This document shows, one piece after another, positions 15,536 to 41,172 of a stretch of DNA of 64,000 bases (position 1 is the stretch's first letter; each line of letters opens with the position of its first letter). The notes below the pieces were generated by a model. That model was not told the origin of the DNA and ran no database searches. It worked only from the letters and a program-made list of their open reading frames with translations. Position numbers and translations under genes: made by a program. The DNA is from Candidatus Melainabacteria bacterium 17Bon1m (GTDB lineage Bacteria; Cyanobacteriota; Vampirovibrionia; Obscuribacterales; Obscuribacteraceae), in contig JAVLKG010000003.1 in NCBI GenBank assembly GCA_032128875.1, positions 193,008 through 257,007 on the forward strand, read 5' to 3'.

Positions 15536-15562
15536 CCGAAAATAAATTTGCGTGGGAAAACA

Positions 15563-16237
15563 ATGAGCAAAGTACTCCTGGTGGAAGACGAAGCTGATCT
15601 CGCTTCACAGATCAAACTGTCATTGACTCGTGAGCACTACACCGTCGAACATGTCGACAACGGTCAATCCGCGCTAGATATGCTGCGTGTCTATCAGTAC
15701 GATGTCGTTGTACTCGATTGGGGTCTGCCTGGAATGACTGGGCTCGAAGTGATGAAGAAATTTCGCGAGAAAGGCGGTAAGACGCCGATTCTCATGCTCA
15801 CTGCCCGCTCTAGCGTTGACGATCGCGCTGAAGGTCTTGACTCTGGTGCTGACGACTATTTGCCTAAACCCTTTCACGCCAAAGAGCTAAACGCGCGATT
15901 GCGTGCATTGATTCGGCGCGCCTCTCAGAGCACAACCACTGTGTTGAACGTCGGAAATTTGTCTTTAGATCCGGTCGCACGCAAAGTTGAGCGGAACGGT
16001 GTTGAGTTGAAGTTGGAACCCAAAGAGTTCAACCTGCTCGAATTTTTGATGCGCAATCCTAATACAGTGTTCAGTGCAGAGGCGCTTATCGACAGAGTTT
16101 GGGAATCCGATACTCTCGTCAGCACAGATGCGATTCGCACTTACATCAAAGGCATTCGGAAAAAAGTCGACACCGATGGTGAACAGTCAATCATCTCCAC
16201 GGTACACGGCGTGGGCTACAGGTTGGACGCGAAGTAA
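15563..16237 (+). CDS. OmpR-family response regulator
   Basis: VEDE, LDWGLPG, GADDYLPKPF, winged-helix TVHGVGY. Confidence 0.95.
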   Translation: MSKVLLVEDEADLASQIKLSLTREHYTVEHVDNGQSALDMLRVYQYDVVVLDWGLPGMTGLEVMKKFREKGGKTPILMLTARSSVDDRAEGLDSGADDYLPKPFHAKELNARLRALIRRASQSTTTVLNVGNLSLDPVARKVERNGVELKLEPKEFNLLEFLMRNPNTVFSAEALIDRVWESDTLVSTDAIRTYIKGIRKKVDTDGEQSIISTVHGVGYRLDAK

Positions 16238-17463
16238 TGTTCAAAGGGCTGCGCATCCGACTGACGCTCTGGTTTATGCTTCTGTCCGGCGTTGCTTTTT
16301 TCATTCTCGCCATCGGCAACACATATCTTTTTCAGAAGTCGCTGACCCAACAGCTCGATGATGAGCTGAAAGCGCTAACTGAGCAAGTTGCGCCATTGGT
16401 TTATATCGTGCGCAATGACTTGCAAGCGCGTGGTTTAGTTGAGCAATTGCACAAAAGTCCCTTTGGATATAAAACTACCGTTCAGCTTTTCGACGCGCAT
16501 GGAAACATTGATGAAGAGCATGGGGAGAAAGGAGATCCCAAGCTTTTTCTGAACAACTGCGAGGTCGAAAGCGTCTCCGGTACGCTGCGCTCAAAGTCTG
16601 TTCCGTTGTTTCAAGATGGGCATCTTTTCGGCTATTTGCAAATTCAAATTCCTACGGCTCAGCGCGATCTCTCTGTCGATAAATTTGTTTTGTCGAAAAT
16701 TCTCCTAGGTCCCATTTTCCTTTTGGGTCTCACTTGGGCTGGTTATTTGGTCTCTGGAAAAGCCGTAGAGCCGGTGGAAGAGTCATATCGCATTCTGAAG
16801 ATGTTCGTTCAGGACGCCAGCCATGAGCTGAAGACACCGGTGGCTACGATTCAGATTACGGCAGAGAATTTGGCAGAGGATGTAAAAGAAGATCCTGATC
16901 TTAGCGAACGATTAGCCATCATTACTCGTAATACAGATCGTATGTCTAATTTGGTTTCTGACATGCTTACTCTTGCGAAAATGGAAGTTGTTCAAACAGA
17001 GGCTAAGCTGATAAGAACGTCTCTGAAAGCCATCCTTGAGCGCCAGACCGAAGAGTTTGCTCCGCGTTTTGAATCTAGTGAGAAGAGGCTAGATGTGCAT
17101 CTAGGTGAAACACCAGCAATCCTGGGTGACGCTGAGTCTCTGAATCATTTGTTTTCTAACTTGATCGAGAACGCGCTCAAATATTCCGAGAAAGGAGCGG
17201 TCGTCAAAGTTGTATTACGCACGCGCGACGGCAAGGCATGCGTGATTGTAGAGGACAATGGCTTAGGCATTCCGAAAGAGGCGATACCGCGCTTATTCGA
17301 TCGCTTTTACCGCGTTGATAAGAAAGCCGCGCGCGCAAAAGGCGGCACAGGTCTCGGCTTGTCCATCGTCAAAACCATCGCCGATATGCACCACGCCGTT
17401 ATCGAAGTCGCTAGTACTGAAGGCAAAGGCACAACCTTTACGGTGACGTTTCCATCCGCTTAA
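16237..17463 (+). CDS. Membrane sensor histidine kinase
   Basis: Two TM segments, H-box DASHELKTP, NLIENALKY, DNGLGI, GTGLGL; overlaps the regulator stop codon. Confidence 0.95.
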   Translation: MFKGLRIRLTLWFMLLSGVAFFILAIGNTYLFQKSLTQQLDDELKALTEQVAPLVYIVRNDLQARGLVEQLHKSPFGYKTTVQLFDAHGNIDEEHGEKGDPKLFLNNCEVESVSGTLRSKSVPLFQDGHLFGYLQIQIPTAQRDLSVDKFVLSKILLGPIFLLGLTWAGYLVSGKAVEPVEESYRILKMFVQDASHELKTPVATIQITAENLAEDVKEDPDLSERLAIITRNTDRMSNLVSDMLTLAKMEVVQTEAKLIRTSLKAILERQTEEFAPRFESSEKRLDVHLGETPAILGDAESLNHLFSNLIENALKYSEKGAVVKVVLRTRDGKACVIVEDNGLGIPKEAIPRLFDRFYRVDKKAARAKGGTGLGLSIVKTIADMHHAVIEVASTEGKGTTFTVTFPSA

Positions 17464-17552: not shown

Positions 17553-17631
17553 ATTTTCTCTTTATATTCGCCCTCACACGTCCCTCACGAACGCTCCGTA
17601 GGATTGCAGTATCGGTTGCGAGGCAGAGAAC

Positions 17632-19188
17632 GTGATGACGAACGGTGTCTACATCCAAAGAAGTTTAGAAGGTGTTCTTCCTGACGCGAATCTTCTGCAC
17701 GTGAAGGTTCGAACTAAGGAGATCCTCGAGAAGGAACTTCAGAGAAGGGAAATTGCCAGTAAGTATTACCCTGATCTGGAGTTCCAAACCGAGGGAACAG
17801 CGACCGCGGCTCGGACGAAGAGTTCTAAAACAAACAGTTCCAATACAAAGAATTCCAATACAAAGAATTCTAAATCTACGAGTTCTAGAGCTAATAGTTT
17901 GGCCAAGGAAGAGAGGCAGTGCAAGCAAAGTCTCATGGTTCATGGGGCTGATACCATGAAAAACCTTGCCGGCATCAAGCCTCTTCTTCCTTATGTGGTC
18001 GCGGTTTCAGTAACCGTTTTGTGCACGCTGGTTGGCATAGCAATGACACCAGTTGTTGACGAAGAGAACTTCTGCATGCTTTATCTGCTGGGCGTTGTTC
18101 TAGTCTCTTGCAGATATGGCTTAGGCGCATCGTTACTCACTGTTCTTTTGAGCGTGATCAGTTATGACTTCTTCGTTGTGTCTCCGCACTACACCTTGGT
18201 GAGGTTTGAAACGCCGTGCCTTCTTACCTTTGTTGCAATGCTAGTGGTGGCATTGACGATGAGCGGTCTGACCGCCAGAGTCAAACAGCACGCACGGCAA
18301 CTCGATACAAGAGTCAAAGAGCGCACATATGAGCTGGCTCTAGCTAACGAAGCTCTTAGGGTTGAAGTAGCTTCGAGAGCGCAAGCCGAAGAACGGCTCA
18401 AAGAGGCGGTTGAAGAACTGGCACGCTCAAATACTGCCCTGGCACAGTTTGCCAAAATAGCGTCGCACGATCTGCAAGAACCTTTGCGTTCGTTGCGCGG
18501 GTTCACAGATTTGTTGACACGACGCTATGAAGGCAAACTGGACACCAAAGCCGATGAGTTTATCGAGCACATCAATGACTGTGGCATCCGTATGGAACGC
18601 ATTATCGAAAGTGTACTGAGCCATGCGCGTGTCCAAGGATGTGACCGTCCGTTTACGAAGGTCGATCTCAATGACAGTGTGAAGGAGGCGATGAAAAACC
18701 TTGAGGTAGCTATCAAGGAAAGTGGAGCGAACATAAGTATTGATGAACTTCCAACAGTGAAGGGCGACGCTCTGCAACTGGTTCAACTTTTCCAAAACTT
18801 CTTGGCGAATGCGATCAAGTTCAGACGCGATGAGCCGCTCAGAGTGAAGATTTCTTGTGCCGAGTCCGTAGGTAGCGATGAAATGGCAGCTTACTTGGAC
18901 GTGGACGATGACTTGCCCAGAGCCTTCTGGCACGTGTCAATAAGAGACAACGGAACTGGGTTCGAAAGCCGTCACACGAAAGATGTCTTCACGATGTTCA
19001 AACGAGTCCACTCTGGTCAGGTGTATGCCGGTACGGGTATTGGCCTGGCGATCTGCAAAGCAATTGTAGAGCGGCATGGGGGGAACATCTGGGTGGACAC
19101 GATGAGGAACGGCGGCTCGACCTTTCACTTTACGATGCCGATAGTGACTGACTGCGAACAAAGTACTGACCGAGTAGAGACTAAGTAG
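17632..19188 (+). CDS. Histidine kinase with KdpD-like (DUF4118) four-helix membrane domain; alternative start 17956
   Basis: MLYLLGVV...SYDFFVVSPHY membrane domain, H-box ASHDLQEPLR, NAIKF, GTGIGLAIC. Confidence 0.9.
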   Translation: MMTNGVYIQRSLEGVLPDANLLHVKVRTKEILEKELQRREIASKYYPDLEFQTEGTATAARTKSSKTNSSNTKNSNTKNSKSTSSRANSLAKEERQCKQSLMVHGADTMKNLAGIKPLLPYVVAVSVTVLCTLVGIAMTPVVDEENFCMLYLLGVVLVSCRYGLGASLLTVLLSVISYDFFVVSPHYTLVRFETPCLLTFVAMLVVALTMSGLTARVKQHARQLDTRVKERTYELALANEALRVEVASRAQAEERLKEAVEELARSNTALAQFAKIASHDLQEPLRSLRGFTDLLTRRYEGKLDTKADEFIEHINDCGIRMERIIESVLSHARVQGCDRPFTKVDLNDSVKEAMKNLEVAIKESGANISIDELPTVKGDALQLVQLFQNFLANAIKFRRDEPLRVKISCAESVGSDEMAAYLDVDDDLPRAFWHVSIRDNGTGFESRHTKDVFTMFKRVHSGQVYAGTGIGLAICKAIVERHGGNIWVDTMRNGGSTFHFTMPIVTDCEQSTDRVETK

Positions 19189-24922: not shown

Positions 24923-25387
24923 TTGCTAAAACCAGATTATTCGAATGATTGCGTGTTGGTGGATCTTGATGGCACGCTAGCCGATTGCGGGCATCGAATG
25001 CACTTCATTGAAAGAAGTCCAAAAAATTGGAAAGGTTTTCTCGATCCTTTTCTGGTAGCTGAAGATCCGCTGATAGAGCCTGTTGCACGGGTTGTGCGCA
25101 CATTGGGCGAGAAGTACCCGATTATTTATGTTTCTGGTCGAACCATAGACCTTTACGACACAACCAAGACATGGCTTACCAAACACGGATTTTGGACACA
25201 CCCGTTCTTGCTGTTTATGCGTCCAGCTAAAGACTTTCGCAGTGACGTCATTGTCAAACGCGAGCTGCTAAAGAAAATTCGCAAAGAATGGAATCCTTGG
25301 CTGGCAATTGATGATCGGACCGGTGTCGTTAAGATGTGGCGTGATGAAGGGATTACGTGCTTTCAAGTCAGTGATGAAACTGATTGA
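24923..25387 (+). CDS. HAD-family phosphatase resembling the 3'-phosphatase domain of T4 polynucleotide kinase
   Basis: DLDGTL, SGR, MRPAKDFRSD..VK, IDDR..VVKMWR.GITCFQV; TTG start after GAGGG (24917 or 24923). Confidence 0.85.
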   Translation: MLKPDYSNDCVLVDLDGTLADCGHRMHFIERSPKNWKGFLDPFLVAEDPLIEPVARVVRTLGEKYPIIYVSGRTIDLYDTTKTWLTKHGFWTHPFLLFMRPAKDFRSDVIVKRELLKKIRKEWNPWLAIDDRTGVVKMWRDEGITCFQVSDETD

Positions 25388-26880
25388 TTTCGCTCGTTTT
25401 TTGATTCGCTATCAGCAGGCTTAGCGCTTTCGCCTATCGGAATACGAAACCAAAATGTGCTTCCTTGCCCGTCTTTGCTAGTGGCGCCTATGGTGCCTCC
25501 GTGTGCTTCAACCAGTGCTTTGCAAATCGTCAACCCCAGTCCGCTTCCCTTCTTTTCTGCCTCGTTTTTACCGTCAACCTGATGGTAGCGTTCGAAGATT
25601 TTTACTTCTTCGCCCGCGGGCATTCCACGACCTTGATCTTTTACTTCGAACAGAATTTTGTTGCCTTCGACCGAAGTGGCGATAACAACTTTCGAATCGT
25701 CCGGGGAGAACTTTATCGCGTTTGATAGCAAATTGGTTATCACCCTGATAATCCGCTCTTCATCGCAATGCACGTCGATATTCGCTGGTCTGGCTTCGAT
25801 TGTAATTTTGCGAGCATCCGCGCTGTGTTGAATCAACTCGGTTGCTTGAGAGATCATCGATGCATCTTCGACCTCTTGAATGTCCAAGTTGAATCTGCCG
25901 GATTCTATTTTGTCGATGTCTAACAAATCGTTGATCAGCTGTATGAGTTTTCCCACTGATGAATCCGCGCGACTTAGCATGTTGCGTGCTTTTTCGCTCG
26001 AATTGTCCATTGATCCACTGGCTAACAAATTGAGAGTCAATTGCAACGACGTCAATGGTGAACGCAAATCATGCGTTATCATCGCCAGTACTTCTTGCTT
26101 CGAACGCTCTGCTTCCTGTAAGGCGCTAGAGACGGCGTGCACTACGTCATCCAGCATGGCTAGTTCATCTACGCCATCTAGGTGTTCTGGTATATTCTTG
26201 CCGGCTCCGAGGCTGACAATGTTTTTCGAAAGAGTATTGAAGCGCTTGGTTGTTCGATTGTTGAAGTACAAGAGCAAGCCCACGACAAGGGCAATGTTGA
26301 TTGTCAGTCCGCCATACACAATGCTGTTGACCCAAACCCGAAGTTCGGTTTCTCTCTTTTGATGCATAACGGATTTCGCTTCTTGCCTTTCAAGAAACTC
26401 GTCGTTGACTTTGTATAATCCGCGCGCTTGTTTTGAAATCTGTAGTACGGCAAACTTTTTTCCCTCTTCGTCAGAAGAATCAAAAATGTTTTGCACGTCT
26501 TTGAACAGCTTAAATGCTTGATCGAAGTTCTTCAGCATTTCATTGACTTCAAGTTGATCTTTAGCGTCGACCGGTATGCTTCTGAGTTCTTCTGCGCGCC
26601 TGGTGAGGTCTACCAAATCAGAATCGAAGCTACGCTTGAAAGCTTCATCCTTGTTGAACTGATACAAGCCCATGTGCGTCGCGAGACGCAAAAGAGTCGA
26701 GATAAGCCCATTACCGGCGGAGACCAATTTCTTCGAGCGCGCTTCTTCCTCGAGTTGCATCTCGAGCCTGTGATGCGCATATGCGAGCGTGCCAACGAAA
26801 GCGAGCTGAAATGCGAGCGCAATGCCGATGACCGCTGTCATTTGTTGGCTGAGGCTAAGTTTGCTCGGAGTGAAGCGCAT
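25363..26880 (-). CDS. Membrane sensor histidine kinase (CHASE3/HAMP-like input)
   Basis: Two TMs, THDLRSPL, NLLSNAIKF, GSGLGL. Confidence 0.93.
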   Translation of the reverse strand: MRFTPSKLSLSQQMTAVIGIALAFQLAFVGTLAYAHHRLEMQLEEEARSKKLVSAGNGLISTLLRLATHMGLYQFNKDEAFKRSFDSDLVDLTRRAEELRSIPVDAKDQLEVNEMLKNFDQAFKLFKDVQNIFDSSDEEGKKFAVLQISKQARGLYKVNDEFLERQEAKSVMHQKRETELRVWVNSIVYGGLTINIALVVGLLLYFNNRTTKRFNTLSKNIVSLGAGKNIPEHLDGVDELAMLDDVVHAVSSALQEAERSKQEVLAMITHDLRSPLTSLQLTLNLLASGSMDNSSEKARNMLSRADSSVGKLIQLINDLLDIDKIESGRFNLDIQEVEDASMISQATELIQHSADARKITIEARPANIDVHCDEERIIRVITNLLSNAIKFSPDDSKVVIATSVEGNKILFEVKDQGRGMPAGEEVKIFERYHQVDGKNEAEKKGSGLGLTICKALVEAHGGTIGATSKDGQGSTFWFRIPIGESAKPADSESKNERNQSVSSLT

Positions 26881-27043
26881 GCTGATTTGGGAGTTGCCTT
26901 TCTGGTTTTTGTGATTAAGTTAGAAAATCACTCGAATCTATGTCAAGGGGCGCCGCAGGGGCTCTTCGATATTATTGTGATTTGCCGGTTGGCTCTGTGT
27001 AAGTGTGGGAAGATAATTTTGGCGGGGAGAAATAGCGTAACGA

Positions 27044-27724
27044 ATGTCCAAAATTTTACTAGTCGAAGACGACGAACTTGTACTGGAGGCTGTTGCCGAC
27101 ACTCTGGAGACCAATAATTTTGTGGTCGAAAAGGTGCGAGACGGGCAGGAGGCCGCAGACCGCCTCAAGCTATATTCCTACGATTTGGCTATTTTAGACA
27201 TCGGACTGCCCAAGATTAACGGCATAGACGTCTGTCGAAACTACCGGGCAACAGGCGGAATCACGCCAATACTCATGCTTACGGGAAAAGGCGATATTGA
27301 AGATCGCGTGCAAGGGCTAGACTCAGGCGCTGATGATTATCTGCCTAAGCCTTTCCATATGCGCGAGCTCATCGCGCGTGTACGCACACTTTTGCGACGT
27401 CCAGTTGGATTAGTTGCAGATGTTTTGACAGTTCGCGATATCACTCTCAATCCTGCGACCGGCAAAGCGACAAGAGGCGGCGTGGAAATTGATTTGTTGG
27501 CAAAAGAGTTGGCGCTGATGGAGTTTCTCATGCGTCACAAGGATCAGATTTTCAGTGTAGATGATCTGCTCGACAAAGTTTGGCACTCGGAATCTGAGTC
27601 TTCGGAAGATGCTGTCAGGCAGTGTGTTACACGTGTACGCAAGAAGCTTGACGTTGACGGAAAGCCATCGATAATCACAACTGTCAAAGGCATGGGCTAC
27701 AAGATCGACAGCAGTTCGATCTAG
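27044..27724 (+). CDS. OmpR-family response regulator
   Basis: VEDD, LDIGLP, GADDYLPKPF, TVKGMGY; divergent from the kinase. Confidence 0.95.
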   Translation: MSKILLVEDDELVLEAVADTLETNNFVVEKVRDGQEAADRLKLYSYDLAILDIGLPKINGIDVCRNYRATGGITPILMLTGKGDIEDRVQGLDSGADDYLPKPFHMRELIARVRTLLRRPVGLVADVLTVRDITLNPATGKATRGGVEIDLLAKELALMEFLMRHKDQIFSVDDLLDKVWHSESESSEDAVRQCVTRVRKKLDVDGKPSIITTVKGMGYKIDSSSI

Positions 27725-27808: not shown

Positions 27809-27841
27809 TGTCAACTCCATGTCAGATTGCCGTATTACAAA
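27809..27841 (+). promoter_or_regulatory. TGTCA-N6-TGTCA tandem box with weak -10
   Basis: TGTCA actcca TGTCA + 11 nt + TACAAA. Confidence 0.5.
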
Positions 27842-27891: not shown

Positions 27892-28536
27892 ATGTTTCAA
27901 ACAACACCAACCGTTTATTTAACTTCAATTGTTGGTTCGCGCAGTTCTGACGGACAACCAAGTGCTGTTCAATCAGCGGTTGCTGCTGCGCCCACTACCA
28001 AACCATTTGGTGCGGTCGAAAGTTTGAGCGGGCTTTTGATTTCGCTCTGTACGAGCGATTGGGCCGAGTTTTTCTCAATGAAGAAAAAATTGTCGGACTT
28101 TGCAGCGTTGGAAGTATGCACGGAAGCCGCACGTCTGCTTGCCAAAAACTCGCGCAGCTTCAGGTTGTTGGCGGTCATTTCGCACCCTGAATTCTTTTCT
28201 GATTGGGAGGAAGTTGAGGCGAAACATCAAGTGGCTCTGTTCGGTGGACTGGCTGTGCATTCGTTAAATAAGAACATGAAAGAATGTGCTTTCCATCGTG
28301 TGGCAAAGGCTCTTAGAAAAGATTGTCTTTCGCAGCAAAACGTCTCCAAGCCGACGAAGCTGAGACTCAGGGATTGCCACACGCTTATTGGTCAATTCAT
28401 GCACGACTATGCGCTCATAAGCGATGTTAATCGCGCCATTGTATTGGCTGCGCTGGCGGAAGGCGAGCAGTCCGGATGTGGGCATTTGCCGAGCCAGCAA
28501 AGCGTCGCTTTAATGAAGAAATTGGGACGCGTCTGA
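27892..28536 (+). CDS. Hypothetical protein
   Basis: Long ORF with no recognisable motif; start uncertain. Confidence 0.6.
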   Translation: MFQTTPTVYLTSIVGSRSSDGQPSAVQSAVAAAPTTKPFGAVESLSGLLISLCTSDWAEFFSMKKKLSDFAALEVCTEAARLLAKNSRSFRLLAVISHPEFFSDWEEVEAKHQVALFGGLAVHSLNKNMKECAFHRVAKALRKDCLSQQNVSKPTKLRLRDCHTLIGQFMHDYALISDVNRAIVLAALAEGEQSGCGHLPSQQSVALMKKLGRV

Positions 28537-33400: not shown

Positions 33401-33700
33401 GGAAAATCGCGCAACATTCGCAGCACCTTCTTTTGGAATTTGGCGTCAATTCTGAAACAACACAGGGCATCAACCCTGTTTGCTGAGTTCATATTTCCTT
33501 GCGCATGCGATACGAAAAGAGATAGTAGAGTTCTTTGTCCGCTCCCGTCAGGGTTTGCTCAATTTAAAGGACAGCGGCGTGGAAGAGCACTGGTAGTGAA
33601 ACAATGAACAGGTGAATCTGGTTCGGAAGAGGATTGCAATCAGAGTTATGCACGCCCAGAGCATGCCCTGATTTATTGGTGTAGAGAATAAGATCAACTA

Positions 33701-34471
33701 ATGACTAAGATTAGTACAGCTGAGTTATCGTCGCGCGAATCACTTAGACGTGAGTGCCTGATTAATAGGCCGTTCGGACAAGAAAGCTATCTGGAGTCAA
33801 TTGCGAAGACAGCGGCTCTCAAAGAAATAGAGTTGGGTGGCACTAAATGTGGCTATGTGCTTGTCAAAGACGAATGTATTGTCGAATTCTTTCTTTTCCC
33901 AAGCTGCGAAGCTAAAGTCCGCGAAGTGATGGTTGCGGTTGTTGAAACCACCGGCGCAAAAACAGCCCTTTGCCAGTCATTCGATGTTCCTCTAAGAGCT
34001 GCTTGTGAAGGGTTTTCTTGGGATTCAAAACCTGTCGGTTTTCTGTTTCGCGAATTCGACAAGTCCCTTTTAGGTTCCAACTTGATTGCCAAATTGGCTA
34101 ATCAATCTCAAATACCTGAGGTATTGTCGATTCATGACGGTTTTTTTGATGACGAGGATGAGATTTGTTTTTACCTCCAGCAAAACGCTAGACTTTTCAT
34201 ATATCGGCACGGTGAGACTCCAGTAGCATGCGGCATCGTCAAACAAGTAGTTGAATGTCGCAATGATTATGATGTTGGTATGGTGGTGGCACCAAATGAA
34301 AGGGGGAAGGGCTATGGAGCTCAGGTCGTCAACCATCTGAAGCATTTCTGTATTGCTCAAGGATGGAATCCCATCGCAGGTTGTAGTGTGGATAATCCTG
34401 CCTCTAAGCGCAGCTTGGAACGCGCTGGTTTCGTCAGCAAACATCAACTCATAAAATTTACTCGTAGCTGA
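33701..34471 (+). CDS. GNAT-family N-acetyltransferase
   Basis: VGMVVAPNERGKGYG and NPASKRSLERAGF. Confidence 0.88.
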   Translation: MTKISTAELSSRESLRRECLINRPFGQESYLESIAKTAALKEIELGGTKCGYVLVKDECIVEFFLFPSCEAKVREVMVAVVETTGAKTALCQSFDVPLRAACEGFSWDSKPVGFLFREFDKSLLGSNLIAKLANQSQIPEVLSIHDGFFDDEDEICFYLQQNARLFIYRHGETPVACGIVKQVVECRNDYDVGMVVAPNERGKGYGAQVVNHLKHFCIAQGWNPIAGCSVDNPASKRSLERAGFVSKHQLIKFTRS

Positions 34472-34537
34472 GTTCGTTGCGAATCGGGTGAATGATGTTT
34501 GTATTTCTCTGAAGAAACATACCTGGTATAAAGCGTG

Positions 34538-34650
34538 AATAAACGGCGAAGCCGTCGCTTCGCAGCGCCGGCTCACCTCCCTTTCTTTCCTTTGCAAAAC
34601 CTTTTGCTTAGCGCTTGCGAGTCGCGTTTCGCATCACGCAATCAATCCGT
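34538..34650 (-). ncRNA. Candidate small structured RNA
   Basis: Follows a conserved box plus -10; no conventional ORF; ends in hairpin GGUGAGCCG-G-CGCU-GCGA-AGCG-A-CGGCUUCGCC followed by GUUUAUU. Confidence 0.45.
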
Positions 34651-34656
34651 ATAAAC

Positions 34657-34689
34657 AGAATAGGCATCGAAGCTGACACCTAGTTGACA
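34657..34689 (-). promoter_or_regulatory. Tandem-box promoter, copy 1
   Basis: Minus strand TGTCA actagg TGTCA + 11 nt + TATTCT. Confidence 0.75.
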
Positions 34690-34729
34690 CCATATCCGGC
34701 ACTACGAAGTTTATCTCTCCGCATGCGAA

Positions 34730-34757
34730 TAACCGAGGCAGTAGCCTGCCCCGGTTA
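34730..34757 (-). terminator. Terminator-like hairpin after the LysM gene
   Basis: taaccgaggca-gtagcc-tgccccggtta inverted repeat. Confidence 0.6.
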
Positions 34758-34823
34758 TATCCCCTGCTGAGAAATCCGTTTGTTGTTAGTTACTCTTTAT
34801 TAGTTGTGCGTTGTTCTACGATG

Positions 34824-35870
34824 TCACTGGCGGCGCGTGACCCAGCCTGTAACTCTGCCGGTTCTGTCTGTGGCAATCACATGATTGTTGCCATCGCCGG
34901 TGGCGATTGTAGTTGTGTAATTACCAGTGCGCGGATCCATTACCGTTTCTGCAGAGCGCACACCTTGCAACTGACGTGTTCCGTATTGATCGCGAACATT
35001 CATGTCGATGCCTTCGCCGCTGTAGCGGACGTTAGAGCGAACGATTTCGCCTGTTCTGCGATCGGTCTCTTGCATCACTTGCGCTGTCGGCGGGCTGCTG
35101 AATAGGTAAGTGCCGTTTCTGACCGGAGCTTCGTATGTTCTCACATTGCGTTCACCGGCGGGCGCAGTGTAATCGTTCGTGCGTTCTCCTTCCCTCCAGC
35201 GAGCGCCGTTCTCGCGTCCTGGTTCAACCTGACCGGGCAATCGCATCGGGTGGTAATTTTCAGCACTCGGAGTCAGACCTGGATTGGTATCACCGACGCC
35301 GCGAGAAGCTTCCGGGCGTGCCCGGTCTCTAATCGATGGAATTGTCAGCTCTGTTCCGACGCGCACATTGTTGGTGTCGCGCAGGCGGTTGGCTTGACCG
35401 ATTGCTTGAACCTGTTCGTGAATGTCCCGGAGTGACGGTTCAGAGCCAGTTTCTGCTCTCAGTCGTTGGCGTGCGATGTGCGACAGCGTGTCGCCGGGAC
35501 GAATTGTGTAACGTGTCGATCCGTCACCCTGATCTCTAAAGTCACGTTCGCCATTCGGTGTGACGCGACCTTCCGGAGTGCGGCGTTCTGACACGACAGC
35601 GCCGGTTCTGCCATCACGAACTTGTTCGCTGCGACCATCTGAGCTGCGCGTGATCAACTGTCCGTTGTTTGCACCCATAATTTGAATGTCGTCATTGCCT
35701 GCAAATCCAAGGCGGCGCATGTCGACGCGATCGTTGATTGCCTGACGTTCGCGCGCCCACGATGCGGGGTTGCGCTGCAGTTCTTCGACCTGCCTTGTGA
35801 TGGCGCTGATGTCTCGTCCATCTGTTCTTTCGAGTGCTGTTGCAACTCTGTCCACTTCTTGGTTTCGCAT
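34824..35870 (-). CDS. LysM-domain protein, lysine-free, paralogue A
   Basis: YTIRPGDTLSHIAR...ANRLRDTNNVRVGTELTIP LysM; AGGAG SD; no signal peptide. Confidence 0.88.
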   Translation of the reverse strand: MRNQEVDRVATALERTDGRDISAITRQVEELQRNPASWARERQAINDRVDMRRLGFAGNDDIQIMGANNGQLITRSSDGRSEQVRDGRTGAVVSERRTPEGRVTPNGERDFRDQGDGSTRYTIRPGDTLSHIARQRLRAETGSEPSLRDIHEQVQAIGQANRLRDTNNVRVGTELTIPSIRDRARPEASRGVGDTNPGLTPSAENYHPMRLPGQVEPGRENGARWREGERTNDYTAPAGERNVRTYEAPVRNGTYLFSSPPTAQVMQETDRRTGEIVRSNVRYSGEGIDMNVRDQYGTRQLQGVRSAETVMDPRTGNYTTTIATGDGNNHVIATDRTGRVTGWVTRRQ

Positions 35871-35989
35871 TTGTGACTCTCCTGGTAAATAACTGCCGAG
35901 TGGCTTTCTATGGGGATGTCGGGGTGAGTAGGATCAGCGAACATGTAAGTTGTTCGCTTAGATTGCTGGGGGAAGTGCTTTCGATTATG

Positions 35990-36022
35990 AGATTATCATC
36001 GGTAGTTGCCACCAAGATGACA
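35990..36022 (-). promoter_or_regulatory. Tandem-box promoter, copy 2
   Basis: Minus strand TGTCA tcttgg TGGCA + 11 nt + TAATCT. Confidence 0.8.
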
Positions 36023-36080
36023 TGACCGAAAGCAGCTTCCTGCAACCTTTCTATGTTTCCCTGCGCTGCGTCTGCGCTCC

Positions 36081-37190
36081 TTAACGCGATTCGTAGTTGG
36101 TCACGCGACCCGATCTGCCGTCGGTGCGGAAGGTGTGACGACGTCCGCTTTGCTCGACAATCTCGGTTGTGTAGTTACCGTCTTGTCCGCGAGTCGTCGT
36201 TGCTGTGCGCGGTTCTGCAATGACCACATCATTGCGTCCACCGGCTCCTTGTGGAACCTGAACACGAATCGGTTCTACAATTTCCGGATACGTTACTTGT
36301 GAGCGAACGACATTACCTTGCCTGTCGAGAATGCGTTCAACACTGGATGGTGCAAATCCATTTCCTCCAACCGTCACTTGGTACTGTTGTCTAGTGGAGC
36401 CGTCCGGCAATTGTGTTTGACGCACGGACGCTGGATTTAGCCTTTCTTCGGGCAAACCACTGGTAGTGTTGTCGCGACCCGAGCCTGTTCTTCTAATTGT
36501 TTCTTGTCTCGCTGCTCCCGGCTCCGTGTTGAGTCCTGGGACAATCAACGGATGGCTGACATTGCGTGGTAATTCTTGTGCCTGACGTTGCAGGTCTGCT
36601 TGTCTCAGTGGCTGGACTTGTTCGCGCTGTGGTGTGCCGGCGGGCGGAGTTGCTTCAGGTGCGCGTTCTCCCGGTCGTGGGACGCGGATTTCTTGACCCG
36701 GGCGAATGCGATTAGGGTCTTGGATGCCGTTTAGCCTGGCAAGTTCTCTGTAATCGTTAGTAATTTCCTGCGGAGTAGGTGTGCGCCCGTGCTGAGCGGC
36801 CATGCGCTCCCTGGAGATACTCCAGAGCGTGTCACCTGGTCTAACTGAATAACGGGCGGTTCCATCTGGCTGTTGCTGAAACTCGCGCGGCGCTTGCGCT
36901 GAAACTATTTCAAAGGTTCGGCCATCTCTTTCGACGCGACGTCCGTCTGGATTTCTTGTTTGGACTCTGCCACCTTGCCCAAGACCAGTGATCTCGAAGT
37001 CGACGTTATCGGGAAAACCAAGTGCACGCATATCAACACGCTCATTGAGCGCGCGCAAATTCTGTGCAAACGCGCGAGGGTTTTCTCTCTGCATTTGCTG
37101 CAGTTCGGCCGTAACAGCTGAGAAGTCTTGACCCTGGCGGGTGTTTTCCAGGCGTCGTGTAACGTTTTCGAGTGGTTGTTCGGGAGGCAT
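36081..37190 (-). CDS. LysM-domain protein, lysine-free, paralogue B
   Basis: YSVRPGDTLWSISR...LNGIQDPNRIRPGQEIRVP LysM; AAGGAG SD; shares N(D/E)RVDMR.LGF and VRS.V.Y / GNYTT.I segments with paralogue A. Confidence 0.88.
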   Translation of the reverse strand: MPPEQPLENVTRRLENTRQGQDFSAVTAELQQMQRENPRAFAQNLRALNERVDMRALGFPDNVDFEITGLGQGGRVQTRNPDGRRVERDGRTFEIVSAQAPREFQQQPDGTARYSVRPGDTLWSISRERMAAQHGRTPTPQEITNDYRELARLNGIQDPNRIRPGQEIRVPRPGERAPEATPPAGTPQREQVQPLRQADLQRQAQELPRNVSHPLIVPGLNTEPGAARQETIRRTGSGRDNTTSGLPEERLNPASVRQTQLPDGSTRQQYQVTVGGNGFAPSSVERILDRQGNVVRSQVTYPEIVEPIRVQVPQGAGGRNDVVIAEPRTATTTRGQDGNYTTEIVEQSGRRHTFRTDGRSGRVTNYESR

Positions 37191-37296
37191 TAGCGATACT
37201 CCTTTAGGAACGTGAAAGCGGCAGCCTCACTCGAACTGACTCGATGTGTGAGATGCGCTGTAACAGGGGAGAGAGATAAAGAACTTCGATGCCTAA

Positions 37297-37329
37297 AGAT
37301 TACTGTTTGAAGTTGCCACCAAGTTGACA
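37297..37329 (-). promoter_or_regulatory. Tandem-box promoter, copy 3
   Basis: Minus strand TGTCA acttgg TGGCA + 11 nt + TAATCT. Confidence 0.8.
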
Positions 37330-37434
37330 TGGAAAGGGTTGGCGAAGAAAAACTCTCACCACACCAAAAAGAAGAGACGGGTCGCTGGGTCCATCTCTCC
37401 TATTGGCTGGTGCATTGGGCTGTCGAACAAAGCT

Positions 37435-38223
37435 TTAGAACTTTTCGCTGAGGGTTCGCGAGAAGGTCGGATTAATTGGCAGCCTGATGCGTGAAGGTGC
37501 ACCTAGCTGCTCGCTGCGCGCGGCAATGCTTTCAGGGCTGATATAGCGCCCTTCATCGCCGTTCCACAGGAAGTTGGCAATCGTATTGAAGAATCCATTG
37601 CTGTTGGCTAAAGCGGGCGCATCATTTAATAGCGTCCTTATCGCTGCGTGCTGTTGCTTGTTGAAATACTCTGGGTTTTGTCCGGCCGCCTCACGCAAGG
37701 CGCCAACCTGAATTTGGTTGTTGTCTGCGACACCGTCTGGATTTATCTTCCTCATCATCGCGACTAGATCATCATATTGTTTCGCCGCAGCTTGCGTACT
37801 GCGTGCCTCCGGCATCAAGCCATCTTTGATGCCGGCACGAACTTCGTCGCGTGTGATGTGGTCACGATTGGTTGCGGTCATGTAATCGAGAGCTCGTTGT
37901 GCTCCCATCACAGCCAAATTGTCGCGCGTCGATTCCGGCTGGCGTTGCTGGTTTCGGATGTAGCTAGTAAGTTCGTCGCGTTCGACAACACCGTTGCCGT
38001 TTCCACCTAAATCGATGCGGTTAAACCGCTGGTTAAGCGTTTCAATCATCAAACCACCAACCAGACCTTGCTCTTGCATTTGACGGGATTGGGCAACGAT
38101 TCTCTCCGCAGCAGAGCCAGGCGCCGCCGGCTGAGCGTAACTCATGGCGGCTAAAGACGCCCACGCGTCGCTGGATGCTGGAGGTGCAGCGCAGTCCTCC
38201 TGGATGTCCTTAAATTTGCTCAT
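37435..38223 (-). CDS. Hypothetical protein with EF-hand-like loop
   Basis: FNRIDLGGNGNGVVERDEL; GAGGAG SD. Confidence 0.75.
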   Translation of the reverse strand: MSKFKDIQEDCAAPPASSDAWASLAAMSYAQPAAPGSAAERIVAQSRQMQEQGLVGGLMIETLNQRFNRIDLGGNGNGVVERDELTSYIRNQQRQPESTRDNLAVMGAQRALDYMTATNRDHITRDEVRAGIKDGLMPEARSTQAAAKQYDDLVAMMRKINPDGVADNNQIQVGALREAAGQNPEYFNKQQHAAIRTLLNDAPALANSNGFFNTIANFLWNGDEGRYISPESIAARSEQLGAPSRIRLPINPTFSRTLSEKF

Positions 38224-38270
38224 CAAATCTCCTCTCAGCGCGAGCTGAAAAACAAGCGAGTGTTCTTGAA

Positions 38271-38573
38271 CTAGCGATACAAGTATGGAATTTCCAGCTC
38301 AGGAGTTTGAACTTGAGACTTCGGTCCACCATCACGCTGAACTTTGATCAAATTACCTTGCTCGTCTTGTTTGAACAAAATTGGATCGCACTTCATCGAA
38401 TATTCAGCTGAAGAGCCGCCCTTTTGAAAGCCTTCTTTCATTTTTAGGTTGAAGTTGGCAGTGGATTTGTCACACATCAGATCTGCTACTTGGTTGCTGA
38501 TTGCCATTGCATCTTCTGGTATGGCAGACACCCCAAGAGCGCATTTTTTCTCGTTGAATTCTAAGTGTTTCAT
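38271..38573 (-). CDS. Small hypothetical protein (100 aa)
   Basis: AAGGAA SD before ATG 38573; short gap to the next minus-strand gene. Confidence 0.65.
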   Translation of the reverse strand: MKHLEFNEKKCALGVSAIPEDAMAISNQVADLMCDKSTANFNLKMKEGFQKGGSSAEYSMKCDPILFKQDEQGNLIKVQRDGGPKSQVQTPELEIPYLYR

Positions 38574-38739
38574 TGTTATTTCCTTTATCAGTGTTTGATG
38601 AGCGTGCTTAGTGCGCATGGCGGGGTGTCGCGCACATGCTGCGGTGCATTGGGTTTTGAAGTCTTACTATCGAGCTATCGAAGGAGCGAACGGAGGATGT
38701 GCCTCCAAGCTTGATTGCGTTTAATCCAGCTGTACATGC

Positions 38740-38772
38740 AATTTACGATCCGTTTCTGACATGAACTTGACA
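38740..38772 (-). promoter_or_regulatory. Tandem-box promoter, copy 4
   Basis: Minus strand TGTCA agttca TGTCA + 11 nt + TAAATT. Confidence 0.75.
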
Positions 38773-39098
38773 CGGCTTGTCGGAAACGCGCGGAGGCTGA
38801 GCGTAGCAGCAAACCGTTGAAGTCGGACGAGAGAAGGGCGCCGAGGAGGCGTCCGTAGCGAGTAGAGGTAGCGCGCGGAAGATGAGCGTAGCGAATCTGG
38901 AGCGCTTATATAATGTCCAAAAGCGCCTAGCTGCATGCAGCCAGACGCTTATGAATGATCCCCGAAAGTTGGTTTTTTGTTTGGTAGGCGCAATCGCGCG
39001 CCTCGTGTAGAGCACCACAAATTTTGGTGCCATTACATATGGTGCCTCGTTTTGTCTAAGTTAGAATGGGGCTTAGTTGCCGAGGTAAGTGCAAGTTC

Positions 39099-39395
39099 TT
39101 AGTCGAGGGGGTGCCAGGCTCCATAACGGTCGCCCATCCAAAGTGAGCTATTCGCTGCGCGGACCATCGTGTAAGAGTCGAGATGGCGGACAAGGGCTCC
39201 AGAATCATAAGAGGCTGCTTTGATCTTGCCGGCTTCATCCTGTTCTACGAACAACTCTTGCATTCGCACTGCATTCGCCGTGTTCAGGTCGAGCGAATAC
39301 CTTTTATATTCTTGCGACTGCGGAGGGACAAAACTCAAGCTGCTGTGTTGAGAAGTTTCCGTATTGCTTGAGTGAATGTCGTTGGAATGAAACAT
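39099..39395 (-). CDS. Small hypothetical protein (98 aa)
   Basis: GAGAGG SD; lies downstream of promoter copy 5. Confidence 0.6.
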   Translation of the reverse strand: MFHSNDIHSSNTETSQHSSLSFVPPQSQEYKRYSLDLNTANAVRMQELFVEQDEAGKIKAASYDSGALVRHLDSYTMVRAANSSLWMGDRYGAWHPLD

Positions 39396-39565
39396 CGGGC
39401 TGCCTCTCGGGGTTCTTAAAAACTGGGGGGCTGTTGTTGGTATTTAATCGACTAATTGTTTCCGAGCCGTTAAACGCGTCTTGATGCACTCCAATCAATG
39501 CAACGCCTAGCTTCGCGGCTTGCGAGCGTTTATCAATTGGTGCGCTATCGGTTTTGGACACCCTT

Positions 39566-39598
39566 AACGTATCAAATGAATTTGACATTGAGATGACA
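39566..39598 (-). promoter_or_regulatory. Tandem-box promoter, copy 5
   Basis: Minus strand TGTCA tctcaa TGTCA + 11 nt + TACGTT. Confidence 0.72.
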
Positions 39599-39705
39599 TA
39601 GGTAAAAACGCCACCAGCGCCAGAATTCTTTGAGCTTTTGGTCGGACGAGCAATAAAAATGAAACAACCGGCGATTACATTTAGCCTATTACTAGGATTC
39701 ATGCC

Positions 39706-41172
39706 ATGCCCTCAACTCACCGAGCGAACGATAATGTCGCGCCAGGCGGCGATAACTATAGAGCTCCAAACCGTTTGGAGACCGAAGGTGTCGGCTACAT
39801 CTCCGGTGGCTGAGGCGGCGGTGGCTGCCGCCCACCAGGTGGTGGGTCCGAAGTTCCAAGAGGTTCGTTGCCCGGTCTGGAGATAAGCCAGGGCACGATT
39901 AATCCGGAAGCGAATCAGACTTGGTTTGGACCTGACGGTGAGATCAAGTATGGAACTGCCATCGAGAAAGCTCAATTCGACGCAACTGTAGGCGTCCAGG
40001 GTTCTGAGAAAGCAAAGAAAGCGAAAGCAGGGAAGCCCGAAGGCGCCGCGGATGAGAAAGAAGCCGAAGGCGATGGCAAAAACGGCGAAACCGCCACTGA
40101 AAAGTCTGAAGAAGAGAAGCTCCAAGATGCATTGAAAGCCGCTTACGATAGGGGTGTTCCTGCGGTCGTCGCATTTGGTTCGCAATCTGCCAAAGATACT
40201 GAAAAACTTCTTGGCACTCTCGACCAAAACATGAAAAATGGGAAAGCAGACTTTATATATGCCGACACGGACAAGCTTGACCCCAATTCAGAACTGGGGC
40301 AAGTCGCTCGTCGCAGCGAAGAAAAGGGACAGGGGCTTGGTGCTGATGGAAAGGCAGACCTGGCTTTCACTGGCGTCTATAAAGTCGAAAAGGGCGCAGA
40401 CGGCAAGTACCACATTGGAAATTCTGTAGCTACTTTCTGGGGCGGTCGCCCGGAAATCGCCGGAATCATGAATGATCAACTCAAGTATGCGTCGCGCGAT
40501 GTTTCTGAGGGCAACGGCTCTGATGTAAGACCTGCACCGGGAGCCGATGTTCGCCCACCTGGTGGAGACGGTGGTAACGGCTCTTCCAATGGAGAACGTC
40601 CAGCAATTGAACCTCCAAAGACAGAAGAAGAAAAAGCGGCCGCAGAAGAAAAGGCAAAAGCAGAAGCTGCTGAAAGAGCAAAAGCCACTGAAGAGAAAGC
40701 CGCGAAAGAGGCTGCTGAAGCCGAACGCGTAAAACAGTTTTCCGACAAACCTTATTCTATGGACCAGTATAAGGAAGGTTGGGGCCGAGCTTTAGATCGT
40801 GCTGGAATGGAAGCCGGACCTATGAGGGATGCTGTCGATAAGCTCGGTCAACAAGTGTTATCCGGTCAATTAGATGGAAAAGAAATTGCTGGGCTAATGG
40901 GTCAGTTAGAAGGGCTAGAGCGTGGAGAGGCAGCCCAGATGCTGGCTGGTGTAAATCAAGAACTGAAAGATCGTGGTGTTGCGATCAGTGCCACGGTCAA
41001 AGACGGCAAGATTCAATCTATGGAAATGCGCGCTGATAATGGAAACGTTTTGGTGCGTGTCGATCAAAATGGCAACGTGACTGCCACCAACAAGGGAAGT
41101 GCAAATCCGGAAAGCCCTGAACAAATTTCTCTGCGTCTGGCTAAGAAAATTGAGCCGGACGCATGCCCCTGA
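39706..41172 (+). CDS. Hypothetical protein with degenerate thioredoxin-like segment; one in-frame TGA at 39811-39813
   Basis: AGGA SD 8 nt before ATG 39706, in frame with ORF 39868-41172; AAYDRGVPAVVAFGSQSAKD...FIYADTD lacks CxxC. Confidence 0.6.

Follow-up and report, generated by a model that had tools for sequence, protein, structure and literature searches.

What switches on a row of five adjacent transcription units that all begin with the same pair of short repeats? The question is raised by a 64-kb stretch of the genome of Candidatus Melainabacteria bacterium 17Bon1m, a member of the Obscuribacterales. The stretch, hereafter the window, corresponds to C3:193008-257007 of an assembly of 7.55 Mb in 35 contigs (C-numbers denote contigs of this genome, which is designated G000). 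An inspection of the bare letters, referred to below as the sequence-only reading, had picked out five intergenic, co-oriented promoters of the design TGTCA-N6-TG(T/G)CA-N11-TAnnnT, and had proposed that the genes behind them, together with one RNA, form a regulon under an activator of the PhoB/OmpR type. In this study, the motif, its conservation in relatives and its neighbouring regulator genes were analyzed. The results support a set of PhoB/OmpR-type promoters, and they point to the product of the response regulator gene at 27044-27724 as the most likely activator.

A fixed repeat geometry at five consecutive promoters

Exact matching of the motif on both strands of the window returned five sites, all of them on the minus strand, at 34657-34689, 35990-36022, 37297-37329, 38740-38772 and 39566-39598. 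The sites, their places, their strand and their spacing were thus confirmed as the sequence-only reading had given them. They are termed promoters A to E here, from the highest coordinate to the lowest, and their repeat parts boxes A to E. No match to the motif was found in 100 dinucleotide-preserving shuffles of the window, and the whole assembly contains 12 exact matches, five of which are those of the window. When the two spacer lengths were varied over a 5 x 5 grid, the combination N6/N11 yielded 12 exact matches and 26 matches with at most one mismatch, whereas each of the other 24 combinations yielded 0-2 exact matches and 3-18 with one mismatch. Therefore, the signal is a property of the geometry and not of the words alone. 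A co-oriented open reading frame (ORF) starts no more than about 170 nucleotides (nt) downstream of 11 of the 12 exact sites in the genome, the exception being the site at 34657.

The crude ORF map used in this analysis over-calls (90% of the sequence is labelled "coding"), and its "coding" labels for some of the sites are unreliable. The ORFs at 39304-39702 and 38743-39033, which cover boxes A and B, had only fragmentary matches in relatives, whereas the gene for a protein of 98 amino acids (aa) behind promoter A and the divergent gene at 39868-41172 are conserved there from end to end. All five sites are therefore intergenic, as had been claimed, once these shadow ORFs are set aside. The distance from the -10 hexamer to the start codon is 170 nt for promoter A, 166 nt for B (121 nt to an upstream ATG), 106 nt for C and 119 nt for D, in agreement with the 105-170 nt first proposed for four of the sites. 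The fifth site had been described as preceding an ORF-less region, and no conserved ORF was found behind box E.

The conservation of the promoters was examined in genomes carrying the same gene cluster with boxes (G011, G032, G049 and G040) and in two further genera, represented by G050 and by g6; the loci L035 and L037, also included, possibly belong to the same genomes as some of the G-numbered ones. Among 61 genomes of the order, 41 contain at least one exact match, and the matches sum to 171, compared with 18 for the pattern read backwards. Each of the six genomes of the genus has 5-12 matches, and the three genomes of a second family have none. Alignments of the orthologous upstream regions (groups A-C) revealed that the segment from the first TGTCA through TAnnnT forms a conserved island, the flanks of which are diverged or unalignable. 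In group A, the box and the -10 hexamer are kept in all five aligned genomes while the flanks diverge; the alignment of group D comprises three close sequences only and is less informative. Boxes A-D are present at locus L035, and boxes C-D at L037. The boxes of the two LysM genes behind promoters C and D are nearly identical (CATGTCAnCTTGGTGGCAACT), although the two proteins share only 33% identity, which argues that the boxes have been kept by selection and are not the relic of a recent duplication. With the exception of box E, conservation in the orthologous promoters thus indicates selection on the sites. The observation of a shared promoter design is real, specific and conserved.

At all five sites, 11 nt separate the end of the proximal half-site from the -10 hexamer, and 22 nt that of the distal one, so that neither can serve as a -35 box. 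The hexamers located 17 nt upstream of TAnnnT are unlike TTGACA, and a consensus scan of 34300-39800 detected one canonical -35/-10 promoter, with 3.6 expected. The pstS promoter of E. coli K-12, read for comparison, contains TTACA-N6-TGTCA-N11-TATTTT, in which we take TATTTT to be the -10 hexamer; its geometry is the same to the base. At promoters of this kind, the pho box replaces the -35 element, and PhoB contacts region 4 of sigma-70. The direct repeats with a 10-11 bp period that characterize OmpR/PhoB class II promoters are present at five of the five sites, and the proximal half-site lies over the -35 position and ends about 10-11 nt before the -10, with no -35 consensus. Excerpts of published work describe PhoB as contacting two tandem 11-bp repeats, each with a TGTCA tract (PMC4447250), and the tandem-repeat structure of the box is also described in excerpts of three further papers (PMC2648988, PMC3131613, PMC4415409). 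The proposed layout of PhoB/OmpR-type activated promoters was borne out by the pstS geometry, the scarcity of canonical promoters, and the island of conserved box and -10 hexamer, and the assignment of the sites to such a promoter set appears well supported by comparison. It is predicted that an OmpR-family regulator binds the half-sites and recruits RNA polymerase, a general mechanism that we consider highly probable.

Two other explanations of the same layout were weighed. The boxes overlap the -35 region, where repressors bind too, and binding is a prediction here, so the repeats might be operators of a repressor or of a non-OmpR regulator that overlap constitutive promoters. We judge this improbable, since there is no -35-like hexamer at the proper distance, since 11-bp direct repeats ending 11 nt before the -10 reproduce the pstS layout, and since the boxes are enriched beside OmpR-type genes, as described below. 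The motif could also serve as a -35 element recognized by an alternative sigma factor, which would fit a fixed two-part design common to many unlinked genes. However, the half-sites lie 11 and 22 nt from the -10, as opposed to the 16-18 nt of the sigma-70 family, and the -10 is an ordinary TAnnnT, which leaves this explanation with hardly any weight. A sigma-54 promoter (TGGCAC-N5-TTGCW at -24/-12) was rejected as well, for in neither G000 nor the orthologues does a TTGC follow at the required distance from the TGGCAA of boxes C and D.

Regulator genes beside the boxes

An OmpR-family response regulator, the proposed activator, is encoded at 27044-27724 on the plus strand, and a sensor histidine kinase is encoded divergently from it at 25363-26880 on the minus strand. 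A sixth box, box F, was located at 27809-27841 on the plus strand (TGTCAACTCCATGTCA, N11, TACAAA), its start lying 85 nt beyond the stop codon of the regulator. It is followed by the gene of a 214-aa protein without a Pfam family (27892-28536, plus strand), homologues of which stand beside the regulator gene in G032 and G049. The position directly 3′ of the regulator gene holds a box in all four same-genus genomes whose flank was examined (G000, G011, G032 and G049).

The genome harbors 73 OmpR-type regulator-like loci, 71 of which are full length. A FastTree tree of the 73 regulators grouped 27044 with C10_45737, C5_543104, C16_17277 and C6_308062, and the recognition helices of this clade follow the pattern (E/V)DA(V/I)(R/W)(Q/K)(C/T). 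Three of the four clade partners (those on C6, C16 and C5) have a strong box within 3 kb, and C10_45737 has only a 16.5-bit site 4.5 kb off. The other two OmpR-type regulators of the window, at 15548 and 49928, belong to a distant clade with the helix pattern D(A/T)(I/V)RTYIK. The sequence-only reading had offered all three regulators of the window as possible controllers; this proposal found support for 27044 only, on account of box F, the conserved adjacency and the clade. A fifth box-adjoining regulator, C1_387414, falls outside the clade of 27044. Among proteins of solved structure, DrrD and MtrA, and not PhoB, come closest to the 27044 protein; RpaA ranks lower.

The adjacency of boxes and regulators extends beyond the window. 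At five of the 21 box loci, an OmpR-type regulator gene is found no more than 3 kb from a box, compared with a random mean of 1.26 (P = 0.008), in a control that uses single positions and hence slightly favours multi-box loci. In g6, the best matches to the 27044 regulator share 62% and 60% identity with it (next paralogues, 51%). Their genes likewise form divergent pairs with a kinase gene, and in both of the two genomes a TGTCAACTTCATGTCAAC box stands 3.3 kb from the regulator gene, immediately beyond the kinase operon.

An iterated matrix with the consensus TGTCAAacgAATGTCAt-N10-TAnnnT was used to survey the whole genome. At a threshold of at least 18 bits, it identified 28 sites, with 2 in the reversed genome, and at a threshold of at least 16 bits, 39 sites, with 4 in the reversed genome. 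The main class, YGTCAAACGAATGTCAT, comprises 9 sites, and its 17-mer precedes at least six unlinked genes; a TGTCC class comprises 5 sites. The window boxes belong to a class, TGTCA(A/T)(C/G)T...TG(T/G)CA(A/G), the pattern of which was written post hoc from these six boxes. The genome contains 8 sites of this class, six of them between 27.8 and 39.6 kb of the window, and the reversed control contains none.

Several of these boxes belong to recurring modules. On C5, a regulator gene and a kinase gene are followed at once by a box and then by an EF-hand-family gene. At C16:14521-18050 (locus L040), a regulator-kinase operon is flanked by boxes of the class TGTCCAAC.AATGTCCA, of which the divergent one lies ahead of a LysM paralogue and the second one behind the operon; three more copies of this class occur elsewhere in the genome. 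At C6:306577-307075 (L039, 3578-4076), three tandem main-class boxes, CGTCAA(A/G)CGAATGTCAT-N10-TAnnnT, are placed within 500 bp ahead of the gene of a 283-aa EF-hand-family protein, which is convergent with the gene of an OmpR-type regulator. The regulator clade is an expanded set of paralogues, and each of them is accompanied by a box variant of its own and by targets that are paralogous as well.

Such a set of paralogues raises the question of whether the window promoters, even if of the type described, are served by another activator. This could be another member of the clade (C10_45737, or the C6 regulator beside the triple CGTCAAACGAATGTCAT boxes), or there could be cross-regulation of a TGTCA regulon of about 30 promoters. 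One matrix covers all of the classes, as its 28 sites at 18 bits or more indicate, the helices of the clade are similar, with that of C10_45737 nearly identical to that of 27044, and the targets come from recurring paralogous families. On the other side, each box variant retains its own neighbouring regulator across the same-genus genomes (judged by positions), the window-type core is almost confined to the window, and box F is found beside 27044 in four of four genomes. On this evidence, we regard control by another paralogue as a possible, though not a likely, explanation.

The regulator encoded at 27044-27724, together with the kinase encoded at 25363-26880, is in our judgement the most likely activator, with a probability of roughly 0.55. 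Several findings weigh against this assignment. No TGTCA repeat precedes the regulator gene, where only a single TGTCA and a GGGGC repeat were found, and autoregulation was rejected for this reason. The -10 hexamer of box F, TACAAA, is poor. The five-regulator clade is modestly supported (0.786), and the pair of 27044 and C10_45737, supported at 0.90, has such similar recognition helices that C10_45737 could bind instead. In other genera, the g6 kinases align over the catalytic core only (243-246 aa), the box-driven genes of g6 are not homologous to those of the window, and the 19 kb examined at the locus of the best regulator match of G050 (57%) contain no box. Of the two other genomes of the genus in which the region of box E was compared, G011 keeps the box and G032 lacks it, a hairpin occupying its place. 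The matrix and the box classes were defined from the sites themselves and thus have a circular seed; the reversed-genome control is not circular. Finally, transcript evidence was sought in four runs labelled RNA-Seq (cDNA) over 33500-40500, and none was obtained: the runs give contigs of 21-38 kb with a flat depth of about 23, that is, they behave as DNA and are silent on starts, strand and co-expression.

We infer regulator binding, activation and co-expression along the following lines. Each of the six sites would be an activator-dependent sigma-70-type promoter with a TAnnnT -10 hexamer and without a -35 box, the place of which would be taken by two 11-bp-phased half-sites, TGTCA and then TG(T/G)CA. 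The phosphorylated OmpR-family response regulator would bind these half-sites as a head-to-tail dimer, and the bound dimer would bring in RNA polymerase in the manner of PhoB at its pho boxes. In this way, six promoters in a stretch of 12 kb would make up a small and mostly local regulon run by the 27044 regulator with its kinase, and the output of this regulon would comprise two small orphan proteins, the EF-hand-like protein, two LysM proteins, the 214-aa protein and possibly a short RNA. The kinase is predicted to span the membrane twice, with about 150 aa of periplasmic sequence between the two segments, so the inducing signal is probably extracytoplasmic.

Further repeats and arrangements were noted near regulator genes and elsewhere. 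In the divergent region ahead of the 27044 gene, the GGGGC repeat is 11-bp-phased and followed by TATTAT (26946-26978, plus strand). At 17572-17604 (plus strand), a CCTCAC-N5-CCTCAC-N11-TAGGAT sequence lies behind the kinase gene at 16237-17463 and ahead of the gene at 17632-19188; it may be the box of the first two-component system of the window. In G049, the orthologues of the 27044 regulator gene and of its kinase gene are separated by an inserted gene for a 477-aa LysM paralogue (L033, 5137-6570). A third repeat type, TGTGATGTGATTGTGATG, occurs at C19:36301-36339 and C13:50694-50732, at two unlinked genes and at the same distance to a TAnnnT-like hexamer. Contig C53 of G050 carries five co-oriented boxes of the form TGTCAC..(G/C)CATGTCAAGAAG...TAAATT, spaced about 500 bp apart (L026, 7882-10493), some of them ahead of ORFs of about 100 aa in the crude map, and thus presents a parallel array in another genus.

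Transcription units and their products

The units behind promoters A to E are described here in the direction of transcription, all on the minus strand. Promoter A (39566-39598) consists of box TGTCATCTCAATGTCA at 39598-39583, an N11 spacer and the -10 hexamer TACGTT at 39571-39566. It lies ahead of P98 (39099-39395), the gene of a hydrophilic orphan protein of 98 aa without a Pfam family, which shares 65-92% identity over its full length with counterparts in four relatives. Promoter B (38740-38772; box TGTCAAGTTCATGTCA, -10 TAAATT) precedes a two-gene unit. The first gene, P100 (38271-38573), encodes a protein of about 100 aa without a Pfam family, and its start at MKHLEF was preferred over the ATG at 38618 because the alignment to relatives begins at that residue. 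The second gene, EF262 (37435-38223), encodes a protein with EF-hand-like loops and without a signal peptide, for which a word-indexed search found only four homologues, with 79-93% identity. Upstream of box B, a 40-nt stretch (38824-38863) recurs with two differences on another long contig of the RNA-labelled runs and is thus a dispersed repeat.

A terminator-like hairpin at approximately 37370-37401, with an 11-bp stem followed by a U run (z = -2.2), separates EF262 from promoter C (37297-37329; box TGTCAACTTGGTGGCA, -10 TAATCT). Promoter C is placed ahead of the gene of a 369-aa LysM protein (36081-37190), which is hydrophilic, has no N-terminal signal, and matches LysM with 42.7 bits at a cut-off of 20.9. 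Promoter D (35990-36022; box TGTCATCTTGGTGGCA, -10 TAATCT) is followed by the gene of the 348-aa LysM paralogue (34824-35870). Between the 3′ end of this gene and promoter E, just upstream of the latter, lies a strong hairpin with a 13-bp stem at approximately 34728-34757 (z = -5.7); none of 200 shuffles folded equally well, and the hairpin is kept in two relatives. The hairpins between units B and C and between units D and E fit separate transcription units. No significant fold was detected in the segment between C and D or in the 126 nt upstream of box B.

Promoter E (34657-34689; box TGTCAACTAGGTGTCA, -10 TATTCT) is the weakest member of the set. About 100 nt behind it, a terminator-like hairpin at 34546-34563, conserved in both G011 and G032, would mark the end of a short transcript; it may also just be the terminator of the convergent GNAT gene. 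The 181-nt stretch behind box E folds no better than its shuffles (z = -1.4), and Rfam gave no match anywhere in the window. An ORF of 175 aa at 34070-34597 was treated as spurious, since it is antisense to the GNAT gene and no comparable minus-strand ORF is present in the map of G011. The RNA that had been counted among the members of the regulon found no support in the Rfam and folding results, and box E is lacking in G032; a short transcript or an antisense RNA behind box E is no more than a possibility.

The proteins encoded behind promoters A to D (P98, the protein of about 100 aa, the EF-hand-like protein and the two LysM proteins) have grand average of hydropathy (GRAVY) values of -0.55 to -1.06 and no N-terminal hydrophobic stretch, and most targets of the other box classes are likewise hydrophilic and devoid of such a stretch. 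Among 21 proteins encoded behind the best boxes, 12 have no Pfam family at E <= 0.01, and the others show weak EF-hand or LysM matches, a clostripain-like peptidase, YfdX, prolyl oligopeptidase and similar families. One target family recurs (C6:307142, C1:318674 and C5:545787), in which EF-hand loops are combined with a domain of about 100 aa at the C terminus. This family, with which the counterpart in G040 of the EF-hand gene of the window aligns, has 71 representatives in 1.84 billion proteins. The C-terminal domain (residues 175-283 of L005) precedes a GH75 chitosanase in three of the nine matches scanned and also occurs inside proteins of 4788-7200 aa; the proteins sharing it are P0036, P0052, P0065, P0038, P0046, P0048 and P0067. 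The three GH75 proteins, too, lack a signal peptide. These features suggest that the targets may attach to glycans of cell walls and be exported without the Sec pathway.

Structure prediction and comparison were also attempted. The AlphaFold2 model of the EF-hand-like protein, built on a 7-row alignment, has a mean predicted local distance difference test (pLDDT) score of 49.3. In a protein atlas, the EF-hand-like protein retrieved rows at 0.88-0.90 that are unnamed or called "Type III secretion effector protein", which is below the bar of the tool and serves as a lead only. The 369-aa LysM protein had no usable match by features in the atlas, and its structural rows had template-modelling (TM) scores below 0.36.

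A farther-reaching idea follows these products to a function. The Obscuribacterales modules of kinase, regulator, TGTC(A/C)-repeat box and target might switch on a battery of proteins that are exported non-classically and act on the walls of foreign cells. The targets would be very hydrophilic proteins without Sec signals, carrying LysM, EF-hand loops or the domain of about 100 aa found elsewhere on GH75 and giant proteins. We consider this idea speculative and unlikely as it stands; if true, it would mean a contact or prey response against algal, fungal or bacterial walls, triggered by an envelope signal.

Phosphate control, known systems and meaning

A resemblance to pho boxes raises the question of phosphate control. 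The PhoB model TIGR02154 has a cut-off of 296.2 bits, which no regulator of the genome reaches; the best score is 225.6 bits, and the 27044 regulator scores 185.5. The only PstS-like gene of the genome has no box, the best matrix score nearby being -0.1 bit, and none of the 21 box-driven proteins scanned is a phosphate-acquisition protein. These results supported the earlier remark that the inducing signal need not be phosphate. A phosphate-starvation regulon with true pho boxes under a PhoB orthologue would account for the TGTCA half-site and for a spacing as at E. coli pstS; it is very improbable in view of these three results, and the helix of the 27044 clade moreover differs from that of the most PhoB-like regulator of the genome. 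To the extent that sequence can tell, phosphate control is excluded. In the crude map, the PstS-like gene is followed by no co-oriented genes of the pstCAB type.

Setting phosphate aside, the promoters tentatively assigned here to the 27044 regulator most resemble those of the E. coli PhoB system subject to class II activation (pstS, phoA), with which they share two 11-bp-phased repeats with a TGTCA core, a proximal repeat 11 nt before a TAnnnT -10 hexamer, and no -35 box. They differ from it in several respects. The 27044 regulator is not a PhoB orthologue and has another recognition helix, the 4-bp part of the repeat is ACTT or CTTG and not AT-rich, and the targets are orphan LysM and EF-hand-like proteins instead of phosphate genes, in a system that belongs to the Obscuribacterales. 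Closer in terms of phylum are the cyanobacterial OmpR-type boxes (the HLR1 of RpaB, the pho boxes of SphR and the boxes of CopR), which also consist of direct repeats before a TAnnnT -10 hexamer. To our knowledge, the half-sites of these boxes are not TGTCA. Title listings of the literature on Obscuribacter response regulators and on two-component systems and promoters of Melainabacteria contained nothing on such a motif. The mechanism itself is a textbook one; the novelty lies in the lineage, in the set of orphan genes and in the modules in which regulator, box and target have co-diversified.

The finding provides a concrete regulon candidate for a two-component system in uncultured, non-photosynthetic relatives of the cyanobacteria, for which the title listings gave no description of transcription control. 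It would tie about ten orphan genes to one switch, and it presents a case in which paralogous regulators, box variants and paralogous targets have diversified together. Its value lies in annotation and in the handle that it offers on what the orphan LysM and EF-hand proteins do.

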